Below, in pieces: positions 8,226-43,898 of a stretch of 64,000 bases of DNA; position 1 is the stretch's first letter, and every line of letters begins with the position of its first letter. Under the pieces are notes generated by a model that did no database searches, had not been told where the DNA came from, and saw nothing but the letters and a program-made list of their open reading frames with translations. Origin of the DNA: Promethearchaeota archaeon (GTDB lineage Archaea; Asgardarchaeota; Heimdallarchaeia; Hodarchaeales; Hodarchaeaceae); contig JBHLMN010000019.1 in the NCBI GenBank assembly GCA_048938105.1, positions 32,001 to 96,000 on the forward strand, in the 5' to 3' direction. Position numbers and translations under genes: made by a program.

Positions 8226-8720
8226 ATGCTGTTGAAGCAACCTAAAGTCCTGTTAGTGGTTTCCTGTAGTAAGAAAAAATCTCCTCAGTTATATGATCGT
8301 AAAATGCGAGCTATAGAAGCTTATACTGGCCCAATGTTCCAAGTCATACATAAAGCCCAGCGTGAGGGTAAATGGGATTCTAACCTTTTTTTAGGAATTA
8401 TTTCTGCTAAATATGGGTTTCTACGTAGTGATGAGTTCATAGAGAATTATGATCTAAAAATGACAAGACAGATTGCTGAAAAACACAATCCTCAGGTTAT
8501 ACGAGAGATGATCAGGTGGAACAATGAAGAGAAATTTAATTGGATTTATGTTTTGATGGGTAAAACGTATTTAAAAGCTGTTGAAGGTTTAGAGGCTCAT
8601 ATAAATACAAACATCGAGGTTGAAAACATGGGGGGTCTTGGAATAGGCCAACAGAAGTTGGTACAGTTCTTGGAACTAGTCTCAGAGAGATCAATGTCCT
8701 TAACAGAGTTAGTGAAATGA
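8226..8720 (+). CDS. DUF6884/YaaA-like protein (ORF track start 8166; likely start ATG 8226)
   Basis: LLVVSCSKKK, AIEAYTGPMF, IISAKYGFL, IENYDLKM, GKTY, GGLGIGQQKL pattern. Confidence 0.75.
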   Translation: MLLKQPKVLLVVSCSKKKSPQLYDRKMRAIEAYTGPMFQVIHKAQREGKWDSNLFLGIISAKYGFLRSDEFIENYDLKMTRQIAEKHNPQVIREMIRWNNEEKFNWIYVLMGKTYLKAVEGLEAHINTNIEVENMGGLGIGQQKLVQFLELVSERSMSLTELVK

Positions 8721-8729
8721 GAGTTTATC

Positions 8730-9803
8730 ATGATTTTCGCCCTTGGTACTCCAATTAATGCAAGATTTCGCCCTTGGACTTATGATTGGACACTAAAACC
8801 AGATGCACTAATGGTTTCAGCAATTGATTTTTTTACTACCCCCACTTTATTTCAGAAAATTAAAAAGGTTGGAATTCATGAATATCTCAAGTGGGATGGC
8901 CAAATTATATGTGACTCGGGTGCATTTTCTGCATTAAATCGAAAGAAAAAGATCAACATTGATATTGAGGAATTGAAGAGAATTTATAGAGAAATAACGA
9001 GTCAAGATCCAAATATTCTAAAAATCACTTTAGACTTTCCTGATGATAAAATTTTAACTCATTATAGGGAGCTATATTCATTAGAAGTTCAACCTGTTGT
9101 TCCTTACGATCGAGTCGGAATTATGAACAATATTATTCGAAATGAAGGGTTACCTGAATGGTTTTTCATTGGACGTCTTGTTCCCCTGATGAGAAAGGGG
9201 GGAAGCCATGCAAATCGGTTATTTCCTGTGATTGAAGAATTAAGAAGACATCTTAAGAATATCGAAGCTTTAAGACTAATAAAATTATGGGCCTTGGGAG
9301 TAGGTGCTCCAAGTATCATTCTTCAACTAGCTGAATTAGTCGATGGGTGTGATTCTGCTCGTTGGCGTATAACAGGGTCCAATATGATACTTTTACCAAA
9401 AGGTGGGGAACGTGGTGTGGGAAACTTAACAAAGTGGCGTGGTACACATCACAGGATAAGTGAAGGATTTGAAAAAGAAATTGTCATAAAAATAATTCAA
9501 CAACTTGAGGAGAAATCAGGAGGATTGGGAAACATTGATATGTCTCTCCTTCCTGATAAACAACCAAAACAACTAAGAACCAAAAAAGAGAAAAATCTGC
9601 CAAAAATCGGAGAACTAATAAATAAAATACAAGAAAATAAGAATCAAATTTCAGTTTATGATCTAGAACTCCTCTTGCGAACATCAGGAAATTTAAGACT
9701 TCTATTTAATTACTGGTCTGCATTATCCTATAAAACTCAATTTAGCGGAGTCACTAAATCAAGAGAATCTAAACACTTTACACTGGATTCAATGTTAGAT
9801 TGA
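8730..9803 (+). CDS. DpdA/TGT-like guanine transglycosylase-fold protein (copy 2)
   Basis: ICDSGAFS, ITLDFP, VQPVV, FIGRLVP, LWALGVGAP, VDGCDSARW. Confidence 0.75.
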   Translation: MIFALGTPINARFRPWTYDWTLKPDALMVSAIDFFTTPTLFQKIKKVGIHEYLKWDGQIICDSGAFSALNRKKKINIDIEELKRIYREITSQDPNILKITLDFPDDKILTHYRELYSLEVQPVVPYDRVGIMNNIIRNEGLPEWFFIGRLVPLMRKGGSHANRLFPVIEELRRHLKNIEALRLIKLWALGVGAPSIILQLAELVDGCDSARWRITGSNMILLPKGGERGVGNLTKWRGTHHRISEGFEKEIVIKIIQQLEEKSGGLGNIDMSLLPDKQPKQLRTKKEKNLPKIGELINKIQENKNQISVYDLELLLRTSGNLRLLFNYWSALSYKTQFSGVTKSRESKHFTLDSMLD

Positions 9804-9839
9804 AAACTAGATTATCTCTGTATTCGGAATAACAAGGCC

Positions 9840-40978: not shown

Positions 40979-43117
40979 ATGACTTCAAGATTAATTGAAG
41001 AAAGTTTCCCCATCCGTGAGATTAGTGAGCTTGCGATTCCAGAACGAAGTAGTTACAAACCAATCTACCAAATTTCAAAGTGGTTTGCCCGACGTGCTTC
41101 TTCCACATTTAGAGCGATATTATTGGGATCCATTCTTCCGTCATCAGCAGATCTTATGAGTAATTTTTATGTTGAACATAATTTCGGTGATTTTACAGTT
41201 ATCGATCCTTTTATGGGTGGAGGTACAACAATAATTGAAGGTTTACGGTTGGGAATTAATTGTGTGGGTGTTGATATTAACCCAATTGCTTGGTTCATAA
41301 CAAAAACAGAAGCTGAACTTGTTAATTTAAGGGAACTTGAAAAATGGATAATAGATTGTGAAGATAAAATTAAGGCTCAAATCAAAAGATGGTACCTGAC
41401 TGAATGTCCAGTATGTAATTCAGAAGCTGATATCATTTATGCACATTGGGTAAAATTAGTGCCCTGTGAGGTTTGTGAAAGCCAGATCTCTTTGTTTAGA
41501 AACTTTATAGTTACTATGAAAGGAGACGTAACCTCAATCTTATGCCCCTCATGTAATACTGTCTTTGAGAACTTAGGTTCTATTCCAACACTAATAAGTT
41601 GCCCACAATGTCAGTTTCAGTTTGGTCCCCTGAAAGGAAATCGGGTTGGACGTAATAGTTGTAGATGTTTCAACTGCGGTTCCATAACCAACATCCTTGA
41701 CACACTCAAAAAGAATCAACAAATTTTGAAATGTAAATTATACGCTATTGAAGGATTTTGTCCGAATTGCGCTAGCAACATTGATTTACATTCCCCTCTT
41801 AAGAATACTAGATTCAAATTTGTCAAGGGAGTTTCAAAAGAAGACATTGATCTTTTCAAAAAAGCAGAAGAGCAATGGGTGCGTTTTTCAATAAAAAATT
41901 TATGGCCAAAAGAACATATTCCTTCTGGAGTGGCAACTAAGACTTTACACAATCATAATTACACAAAATGGGTAGATTTGTTCAATAGTCGTCAGCTTTT
42001 AGCTCTCACCATGATTCTTGATTATATCCAGAAGATTCCAAATGTTGTTTTCCAAGAAATGTTTTTGGCTGCATTTATAAATCTTTTAAATCATAATAAT
42101 ATCTTCACAAGATATTCTCCTAAAGGTCAGAAAGTAGAAGGCATCTTCGCAAGGCATGATTTTCACCCACTCTCCACATTTGCTGAAAATAATGTTTGGG
42201 GGACAAGATATGGGAGGGGAACTTGGAAAAAATGCCTTAACCGCCTTCTAAAGGGAAAGGAGTATAACCATTCTCCTTTCAATTATACTCGAATAATTTC
42301 TCGTAATGGAAAACTTGGAAGGAAAAAAACCTTTTCTGGGAAAATTGAAGGAAAAACAACTACTGAGTCCGACATAACTTTTCCATCAGCAGAACATAAT
42401 TTACTTTTACTTTGCCAAGATTCAGAGGATCTTAAAGAACTCCCACTATCTGTTGATCTCATAATTTCAGATCCACCATATGCAGACAATGTGAACTATT
42501 CTGAATTATCAGACTTTTTTTACGTGTGGCTTCGTTTGTTACTTAAAAAGAGGTACAAGTGGTTTTTGGCACAAGAAACACCAAAGGATGCAGAAGCTAT
42601 TATAAGCCAAAATCGGGATTTAGATTATTATAATAAATTGATAGGAATATTTAAAGTAACAAAAGCTAAACTGAAGCCTGATGGGATGTTAATCTTTACT
42701 TTCCATCATTCAGATAAGGAAATATGGTTCAAACTATCTGAGGTTATAATTCGAACTGGATTCCAAGTTGTTAGGACTTATCCAATACCCAGTGAAGCTC
42801 GAAATGTGCTAAACATCCAGAAAAAGAAAGCTATTGCGTTCGATCTGATCATTGTTTGTCGTCCAAACGAACAGAGAAGTCAATCGAATATTACATTAGA
42901 AAAATTTGAAAAAAAAGTCAAAGTTCAATACAACAAAGAGTTAAAAAATTTCATGGAAGCAAATATTAAAGTTAAGGATTTCGATCACTTAGCAATCTAT
43001 TTTGGTATTCTTCTTGAGATGGGATCTCAATTCAATGTTGTAACTCATTCTGGGCGTAACCTAACTCAAAAAGAGATTTGGGATTCTTGTTATAAAATAA
43101 TAACTTCTTCAAGATAA
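40979..43117 (+). CDS. DUF1156-type adenine DNA methyltransferase with multi-zinc-ribbon insert
   Basis: KWFARR, DPFMGGGT, six CxxC pairs, DLFNSRQL, ISDPPYADNVNYSELSDFFYVWL, FTFHH. Confidence 0.88.
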   Translation: MTSRLIEESFPIREISELAIPERSSYKPIYQISKWFARRASSTFRAILLGSILPSSADLMSNFYVEHNFGDFTVIDPFMGGGTTIIEGLRLGINCVGVDINPIAWFITKTEAELVNLRELEKWIIDCEDKIKAQIKRWYLTECPVCNSEADIIYAHWVKLVPCEVCESQISLFRNFIVTMKGDVTSILCPSCNTVFENLGSIPTLISCPQCQFQFGPLKGNRVGRNSCRCFNCGSITNILDTLKKNQQILKCKLYAIEGFCPNCASNIDLHSPLKNTRFKFVKGVSKEDIDLFKKAEEQWVRFSIKNLWPKEHIPSGVATKTLHNHNYTKWVDLFNSRQLLALTMILDYIQKIPNVVFQEMFLAAFINLLNHNNIFTRYSPKGQKVEGIFARHDFHPLSTFAENNVWGTRYGRGTWKKCLNRLLKGKEYNHSPFNYTRIISRNGKLGRKKTFSGKIEGKTTTESDITFPSAEHNLLLLCQDSEDLKELPLSVDLIISDPPYADNVNYSELSDFFYVWLRLLLKKRYKWFLAQETPKDAEAIISQNRDLDYYNKLIGIFKVTKAKLKPDGMLIFTFHHSDKEIWFKLSEVIIRTGFQVVRTYPIPSEARNVLNIQKKKAIAFDLIIVCRPNEQRSQSNITLEKFEKKVKVQYNKELKNFMEANIKVKDFDHLAIYFGILLEMGSQFNVVTHSGRNLTQKEIWDSCYKIITSSR

Positions 43118-43136
43118 GAGACAATCTGGGTTTGAA

Positions 43137-43898
43137 ATGGTTAATGATTCAAAATATGAGCTCATAATTGGAAATGTTCTTGAATCATTACCATTAAAAG
43201 CTAAAGAAAGACCCTTTAATCTTATCATTGCTGATCCTCCATTTGGAATTTCTTTCAATAAATCTAGCCACGAATATGGATCGGAGGAATATGACCTTTA
43301 TGAGGATAATTTTACTCCTGAATCTTATTTTGAGTTTTCTAAAGATTGGATTCAAACCTGTTATGATGCTTTGGTAGAGAATGGGAGCCTATACATCATT
43401 TCAGGTTGGACCAACCTTCAATATATTCTGAATGCTATAAATCAATCTGAATTTCATATGTTAAATCATGCCATATGGCATTTTTCATGGGGGGTCTATA
43501 CTAAAAGACGATTTGTGACAAGTCATTATCACATTCTTCTACTGGTAAAAAACAAGAAAAATTATCAGTTTTACAAACAGAAACATTATGATGAAGACGT
43601 ATTCTTTTGGCCTGAATATAATCGGGGAAATGATCCCCATCGCATTAAAGGTCATCCATGTCAGTTACCTATTGTCCTGTTAGAGAAATTAATTCTCACC
43701 TCCAGTGCTCCTAGTGACCTTGTAGGGGATATTTTCTCGGGAAGTGGAGGTACAATCTTAGCAGCGCGGTTAACTGGTCGTGATGTGGTAGGATTTGAAA
43801 TTAGAGAAGAATATAAACATATTATTCAACAAAAAGCCCGATTTGGAGAACATGTGTCCCGCCCAGACAAGCAATCCACTCTGGAGAGGTTTTTGTAA
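43137..43898 (+). CDS. Beta-class DNA amino-methyltransferase with C-terminal PIP-box
   Basis: [22 protein letters not shown]; ends QSTLERFL. Confidence 0.9.

Follow-up and report, generated by a model that had tools for sequence, protein, structure and literature searches.

Copying DNA marks by way of the sliding clamp is seen as a eukaryotic strategy, exemplified by DNMT1 and, recently, by the ciliate AMT6 complex, and prokaryotic methyltransferases are usually pictured as free enzymes. The DNA analysed here (the window; 64,000 nucleotides, contig C31:32001-96000 of genome G000) belongs to an archaeal genome of 5.85 Mb and 35% GC that the names of homologues assign to Hodarchaeales/Heimdallarchaeia (Asgard archaea), and encodes a DNA methyltransferase (MTase, positions 43137-43898) that ends in QSTLERFL, a predicted PCNA-interacting protein (PIP) box, as well as a group of genes for TGT-like and DUF6884 proteins (the module). 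In the closest described systems, PCNA recruits DNMT1 (5-methylcytosine, 5mC) and the Tetrahymena AMT6 complex (N6-methyladenine, 6mA) via PIP boxes (PMC11761967), among archaeal proteins NreA and NucS are established as PCNA clients (PMC4929162), and the consensus PIP peptide of A. fulgidus is KTTQSTLDSFFK (PMC4929162). The bacterial Dpd DNA 7-deazaguanine system comprises DpdA, DpdB and DpdC (PDB 7ui4; PMC10164549), and the haloarchaeal virus HRTV-29 has genes for DpdA and YaaA (PMC8651126). No report of an archaeal DNA MTase, or of a transglycosylase module, as a PIP-box client was found in literature searches, an absence that is not proof; the nearest archaeal hint is a putative adenine MTase that co-purified in a P. 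abyssi NucS pull-down.

MTase 43137-43898 probably marks new DNA at the fork, because its tail carries the PCNA-docking peptide of replication enzymes. The overall explanation, to which a probability of about 0.7 is assigned, is that this apparently stand-alone enzyme docks on PCNA by its C-terminal PIP tail and methylates behind the fork, and that such docking is a lineage-wide habit. PCNA-coupled DNA methylation is likely, judged from the sequence comparisons that follow.

The C-terminal tail of MTase 43137-43898

In the proposed architecture, a flexible linker of about 12 residues extends from the catalytic fold and would present a canonical PIP box at the C-terminus:
43137-43898, plus strand: MTase of 253 aa, beta-class (N6A/N4C type), PF01555
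43836-43871, plus strand: linker from the last helix of the fold to the motif (residues 234-245), variable and probably disordered
43872-43895, plus strand: predicted C-terminal PIP box QSTLERFL (residues 246-253, the last 8 residues)

The enzyme was matched by Pfam PF01555 with 135.1 bits (cut-off 26.7). Its DPPF motif (residues 33-36) lies ahead of FSGSGG (residues 200-205), both being invariant, and its closest solved relatives are CcrM, M.MboIIA, DpnA and N4C MTases (beta-class N6A/N4C). The tail fits QxxhxxAA (h = L/I/M; A = aromatic, with L tolerated at the last position) and resembles the A. fulgidus consensus peptide. An earlier note on this DNA had quoted seven PIP-box-like strings in proteins read as DNA-modification enzymes and had called this one alone canonical; all seven were recovered at their positions when checked on the sequence, and the canonical character of QSTLERFL was confirmed.

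Conservation of the tails in orthologues had been proposed as a check, and for this enzyme it is complete: the ending x-T/S-L-[DE]-x-[FY]-[LF] is kept in 60/60 orthologues of at least 66% identity (120 homologues examined). Across 42 orthologues the linker columns 238-248 show entropies of 1.4-3.9 bits, Leu at position 249 is invariant (0 bits), D/E occupies position 250 almost without exception, only F or Y occurs at 252, and L, F or I at 253. In another Asgard family, orthologues at 51-56% identity have unrelated genes around them and finish with KKVQTGLDAF or KLQTGLDNF, and the C-terminal pattern of Loki-, Sigyn- and Hel-type homologues is KKxxLxxF[LM]. In the AlphaFold2 model (predicted template-modelling score, pTM, 0.84) the fold stops at helix 224-233, residues 234-253 are coil according to DSSP, the predicted local distance difference test (pLDDT) dropping from 93 to block means of 58 and then 45 there, and a short helix is predicted with low confidence at residues 248-252. 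QSTLERFL is thereby modelled as exposed on a flexible terminus beyond the folded domain.

It is highly improbable that this tail is a product of chance or purely structural, the enzyme then working unattached in solution, as most prokaryotic MTases do. Position alone would account for roughly half of the canonical terminal matches in the proteome (Qxx[LIMV]xx[FYWL][FYWL], 0-4 residues from the C-terminus, 21 seen and about 9.5 expected from internal density), and Thermoplasmata homologues work without the motif. Against chance stand the score of QSTLERFL, which lies far above the control distribution, the invariant core behind a variable linker in every one of the 60 orthologues, the PIP-like ends that distant orthologues retain behind very different linkers, and the placement of the tail outside the fold in the model. 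By every test available, QSTLERFL is a real, conserved PIP box at the level of sequence, from which we infer binding to PCNA and coupling to replication.

The Thermoplasmata/Methanobacteriota homologues (P0062-P0100; L217-L219) have a conserved tail of their own, W-[DG]-x-P-V-E-R-R-G-L. The idea that PIP presence tracks PCNA presence was discarded, no correlation being found: the PIP-less homologues that end in ...PVERRGL come from Thermoplasmata/Methanobacteriota metagenome-assembled genomes, which are also archaea.

Within the genus (4 genomes) the gene order HAD hydrolase, optional DUF1156 MTase, MTase 43137-43898 is kept, and it differs in another family. The identity of the enzyme to its genus relatives (70-82%) is similar to that of neighbouring genes, and by these comparisons the MTase appears to be stand-alone and is vertically inherited within the genus. 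Its neighbours in the window are a HAD hydrolase, a DUF1156 MTase, a likely thioredoxin reductase (read from sequence) and a cupin-like protein; no nuclease was recognised beside it in genus relatives or in the window, where only some neighbours were profiled and novel nucleases are possible. Four DNA MTases of differing architecture lie within 8 kb (39435-40253, 40979-43117, 43137-43898 and 45533-47233), with no restriction endonuclease recognised there, and a beta-CASP/RNase J-like nuclease gene (38074-39534) overlaps the end of MTase gene 39435-40253. In the other Asgard family, a 141-aa protein encoded a few genes from the MTase orthologue (L078:8515-8943, L079:4556-4981, L080:5377-5802) has the PIP-like ends SSTLESFL, TSSLSSFI or SSTLKTFL; within G000 it is most similar to a NUDIX protein (about 30% identity).

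Tails across the proteome and in other methyltransferases

A single PCNA is encoded in the genome (C6:289976-290845), with the genes for the RFC small and large subunits directly after it. The protein carries a C-terminal extension of about 40 residues, nearly all Asp/Glu with a few Trp (the PCNA-RFC stretch, C6:289976-293531, lies outside the window). The last 14 residues of each of 4,697 proteins (greedy open reading frame calls) were scored with a matrix prepared from the tails of five of the genome's own PCNA clients:
FEN1: tail RKTLDRFF
RFC large subunit (RFC-L): tail EKTLSDFF
RNase HII: tail HTTLEEFL, followed by 6 residues
PolB: tail QVNLMEFFG
PolY: tail QLTLMPFLSHRA

QSTLERFL is the top tail outside the training set (16.6 bits) and the sole clear standout against chance among the seven strings. 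Scores of at least 10 bits were obtained for 15 tails and for 1 internal control window. The next ranks are taken by NreA (RKTLDDYF), an RmuC-like protein, Ogt/MGMT (KKTLTEFL), NucS (SKRLDEFF) and Fpg, and the scan is regarded as validated because the known clients NreA and NucS rank near the top. The other proteins of the window lack such tails, as had been claimed for the metabolic ones, and none of them ranks under 240. A Q-less pattern with L/M/V permitted at positions 7-8 carries no information because it is found in 16-31% of all tails; on the question of motif frequency relative to random C-termini, which the earlier note had raised, the canonical pattern shows the excess given above.

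Among the 55 genes of the genome that match the DNA-MTase profiles PF01555 or PF02384, four further families of small PF01555 enzymes, encoded elsewhere in the genome, have genus-conserved tails of the type L-[DE]-x-[FYW]-[FL]:
C6:363463: tail [NS]L[DE]xWL plus 1-5 residues; W-L in 15/16 genus relatives and F-L in the other one
C41:81855: tail [DN]LxxFL; kept in 6/10 relatives, with GLxRYL in 2 more
C14:190090: tail L-T-K-F-[LF] and variants; kept in 15/16 relatives
C20:61555: tail VLDK[FY]F and variants; kept in 11/17 relatives

By a strict definition of the tail, which asks for a polar context, an aromatic residue at position 7 and no more than 6 residues beyond the motif, 57 of the 4,697 proteins match (1.2%), compared with 30 of 4,451 when 40 residues are trimmed as a control. 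The definition is matched by 4/55 MTases (p = 0.004) and by 4/16 small PF01555 MTases (p = 3e-5); the tails of these four, and that of C20:61555, are conserved genus-wide. Both members of random orthologue pairs carry a strict tail in 3/234 and 6/239 cases only. The enrichment for DNA modifiers that had been suggested as a check is found for MTases under the strict definition; the a priori matrix shows it only weakly. Tails that read as PIP-like occur in at least five families of small PF01555 MTases in the genus, a lineage-wide habit, and at the level of the lineage the broader claim of PCNA coupling holds for methyltransferases as far as such comparisons reach.

In the proposed mechanism, the tail of MTase 43137-43898 would insert in the hydrophobic pocket of PCNA in the manner of the FEN1, RFC-L, RNase HII, PolB, NucS and NreA tails. 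The enzyme would be concentrated in this way on the clamps left on newly made DNA, and could re-methylate hemimethylated sites right behind the fork.

The following strong PIP-like tails were also observed and mark candidate new clamp clients:
C6:31070-31912: DUF72 protein, tail RRQMSLREFF
C20:92963-93565: Ogt/MGMT, tail KKTLTEFL
C42:248273-249451: radical S-adenosylmethionine protein with helix-hairpin-helix, tail RQSRIKEFFDK
C38:5308-6717: RmuC-like protein, tail AQINLDSFF
C2:3125-3934: Rad51-like ATPase, tail QIPLTQFW
C14:95399-99208: 1,269-aa protein without Pfam match, tail QIILDRFLNE

The TGT-like module and the internal motifs

The wider proposition that DNA modifiers dock on PCNA is well supported at the sequence level for MTase 43137-43898, and is strengthened by the four further MTase families and by the clearer tails of module orthologues; support is limited in that the three module tails are degenerate in the window and two of the other strings are not PIP boxes. 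The module tails belong to the following proteins:
6164-7132, minus strand: TGT-like 1, with HRELDQSF (6200-6223), degenerate and PIP-like, 11 residues from the end
8166-8720, plus strand: DUF6884/YaaA-like protein, ending SMSLTELVK (motif 8691-8714)
8730-9803, plus strand: TGT-like 2, divergent TGT fold without tRNA-binding C-terminal domains
9741-9800, plus strand: tail of TGT-like 2 (residues 338-357), ending HFTLDSMLD, with HFTLDSML (9774-9797) one residue from the end

The families assigned earlier to the MTases, the DUF6884 protein and the TGT-like proteins were confirmed with Pfam, although TGT-like 1 and TGT-like 2 show only faint similarity to TGT/ArcTGT profiles. The DUF6884 protein was matched by PF21818 (54.1 bits, cut-off 30) and by PF03883 (YaaA; 30.4 bits, cut-off 29.6), and in PADLOC by PDC-M57A (6e-11); its equivalence to DpdC is not established because the DpdC match is weak (E = 1e-3). 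Both TGT-like proteins are extra paralogues, since the true ArcTGT of the genome is encoded at C52:354442-355752 (514 bits); the tail of the latter ranks 4,679 of 4,697 and has no PIP-like motif. The AlphaFold2 model of TGT-like 2 (pTM 0.85) was aligned by VIA-align with ArcTGT at Z 20.7 (266 residues, 3.2 A), with DpdA (7ui4) at Z 18.6 and with bacterial TGT at Z 17.6, the next unrelated TIM barrels scoring about 12.6 or less, and on the model TGT-like 2 is placed in the TGT fold. Its residues 338-357 have pLDDT below 50, with a short helix predicted at 352-355. Because the relatives lack the major facilitator superfamily (MFS) transporter gene (9840-11138) that separates TGT-like 2 from the 810-aa double-domain MTase (11275-13707) in the window, and have this MTase directly after TGT-like 2, the conserved module is taken to be MTase 4822-6189, TGT-like 1, 7295-8197, DUF6884 protein, TGT-like 2 and 810-aa MTase.

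The ends of the three proteins, which had been put forward as further PIP motifs, are weak in the window copies, where position 7 is not aromatic (positions 7/8 are S/F in TGT-like 1, L/V in the DUF6884 protein and M/L in TGT-like 2), and many orthologues are better at the same sites. Conservation is partial. Among genus relatives of TGT-like 1, 11/16 copies end in L-x-x-[FY]-[FL], e.g., RRLYQFFQNNIK, MDLGQFL, MSLDQFL and RTLDYYFN. An aromatic PIP-like end is found in 32/78 homologues of the DUF6884 protein (e.g., KSLEDFLT, MSLTDFMK), a divergent subgroup of which has the canonical-type end Q-[EAG]-[TP]-L-E-[DN]-F-L-G; the window copy has L at position 7, where its orthologues have F. The homologues of TGT-like 2 stem from Hodarchaeales/Heimdall-type Asgard assemblies wherever the source names the organism, and 18/67 have a motif (15 aliphatic, 3 aromatic), the rest being without motif or without tail; a tail of 18-20 residues with ESKxxTLDS[ILMV]L is confined to one subclade.

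The remaining strings are internal. Eco57I/N6_Mtase profiles were matched by MTases 21730-23514 and 45533-47233, and PF01555 by 11275-13707.
22522-22545, minus strand: VTQLTEYL, residues 324-331 of 594 in the Eco57I/TaqI-type MTase 21730-23514

At this site L-x-x-[YF]-[LFIV] is kept in 12/12 orthologues (42-87% identity), and the adjoining Pro-rich loop described earlier corresponds to a Ser/Pro-rich stretch after it that varies. Sequence matches of this MTase in the PDB span the N-terminal catalytic domain and do not reach VTQLTEYL, a conserved candidate motif that is ambiguous: it may be structural (a buried helix) or an exposed peptide. Two strings that had been listed as weaker PIP matches were rejected. 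TDSLDNFR (12331-12354) belongs to an inter-domain linker that is hypervariable, and the string is missing even from orthologues of 60-79% identity; ESTLSDW (46754-46774) is part of the catalytic domain, some 20 residues ahead of NPPW, with a Leu that is not conserved.

A serious alternative, held at somewhat less than even odds, is that the weaker motifs (TGT-like 1, DUF6884, TGT-like 2 and VTQLTEYL) are ordinary sequence, namely amphipathic ends, linker or core, and that the 253-aa MTase is the single real client. In the ranking of 4,697 proteins SMSLTELV comes at 3,448 and the last 14 residues of TGT-like 1 at 2,707, position 7 is L, S or M in the three window copies, loose patterns occur in 11-31% of tails, and the rejection of TDSLDNFR and ESTLSDW points the same way. 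HFTLDSML is borderline (rank 44/4,697, 5.6 bits). On the other side, orthologues are better at the same positions, including a canonical Q-x-x-L-x-x-F-L in the DUF6884 subgroup, and the tail of TGT-like 2 is a clade-specific, low-confidence extension with a conserved TLDS-h-L core. Clamp coupling of the module is plausible but unproven; because the window tails have lost the aromatic residue at position 7, any docking here would be weaker or lost, and in many relatives the three proteins do carry PIP-like tails. The earlier argument that PIP tails point to DNA as the TGT-like substrate is suggestive only.

An extension of the favoured explanation, which appears unlikely as a whole, would have several unrelated small MTases and the TGT-like/DUF6884 base-exchange module dock on the clamp. 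The three module proteins could then fill the three sites of one PCNA ring, PCNA would stand in for DpdB, the ParB-like ATPase of the bacterial system, and methylation and a modification of the 7-deazaguanine type would both be added in the wake of the fork. More doubtful still is the proposal that the tails bind another shared partner or each other, as an oligomerisation or complex-assembly peptide or on a ParB/DpdB-like or SMC-type hub. The DUF6884 and TGT-like 2 tails are jointly present or jointly missing across genomes, gained and lost together as for partners, TGT-like 2 tails are mostly aliphatic, and some non-DNA proteins have similar tails. The MTase tail, however, is nearly identical in type to those of FEN1, RFC-L, RNase HII, NreA and NucS from the same genome and is common to five unlinked MTase families, and PCNA is the simplest reading because one hub is already known to read such a peptide.

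Several observations weigh against docking of these proteins on PCNA. The strict tail definition was composed after inspection of the data; the a priori matrix yields weak enrichment of the class, with p ranging from 0.001 to 0.2 according to the cut; and in 8.5% of random orthologue pairs both proteins share a loose L..[FYW]h pattern. Specificity of the motif scan is incomplete, because a class I tRNA-synthetase-like protein (C4:122810-123946, RNRLDEFLIKD) and a D-aminoacyl-tRNA deacylase (C20:77090-77878), neither of them a DNA protein, score fairly high. In the window the DUF6884 and TGT-like 1 tails do not exceed the average score, the tails of TGT-like 2 are for the most part aliphatic, not aromatic, and Thermoplasmata-type homologues of MTase 43137-43898 lack the motif though their hosts have PCNA.

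Comparison with known systems

If Asgard archaea do tether several MTases, and perhaps a base-exchange module, to PCNA, replication-coupled marking would predate or parallel the eukaryotic systems. A simple, testable model of methylome completeness would then be available for an archaeon with about 55 methyltransferase genes, together with a possible origin of transient strand asymmetry alongside PCNA-bound repair nucleases such as NucS, and with a panel of short peptides for assay on a single recombinant PCNA.

The module resembles the Dpd system and its HRTV-29 counterpart in that a TGT-fold protein without tRNA-binding domains (DpdA Z 18.6) is encoded beside a YaaA/DpdC-like protein, amid DNA MTases. 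Structural similarity alone cannot separate DpdA from tRNA TGTs in the case of the TGT-like 2 model. An assignment of TGT-like 1 or TGT-like 2 as DpdA (DNA preQ0 insertase) would call for a sequence-model match and a DpdB partner; neither protein was matched by the PADLOC models, that of DpdA included, and no homologue of DpdB (ParB-like) or of DpdD-K was noticed beside the module. Unlike bacterial Dpd, the window has two TGT-like paralogues, and orthologues of the module proteins have PIP-like tails, which Dpd lacks.

With CcrM (PDB 6pbd), a solitary beta-class MTase, MTase 43137-43898 shares the PF01555 fold, the order DPPF then FSGSGG, the lack of a recognised partner nuclease nearby and a syntenic position. 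It is far smaller than CcrM, lacks the C-terminal DNA-binding domain of the latter and has a PCNA-type tail instead. The likeness to DNMT1 and AMT6 lies in the proposed logic, in which a PIP box recruits a DNA methyltransferase to freshly replicated DNA. DNMT1 is a C5 MTase and AMT6 an MT-A70 complex, whereas the window enzyme is of the unrelated beta-class PF01555 type, and the eukaryotic PIP boxes are internal or N-terminal, whereas that of MTase 43137-43898 is C-terminal; the comparison is an analogy only, because nothing indicates common descent.

The closest parallel is offered by the archaeal clients with C-terminal PIP boxes (FEN1, RFC large subunit, RNase HII, PolB, Y-family polymerase, NucS/EndoMS and NreA; PMC4929162), which, like the MTase, have a QxxLxx[FY][FL]-type peptide at the C-terminus on a flexible linker. 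Unlike in those clients, what the clamp would carry is a DNA methyltransferase and perhaps also a transglycosylase module, for which we infer binding from sequence. With the genome's own clients the tail of MTase 43137-43898 shares the TL[DE]xF[FL] flavour, the conserved core and the drifting linker.

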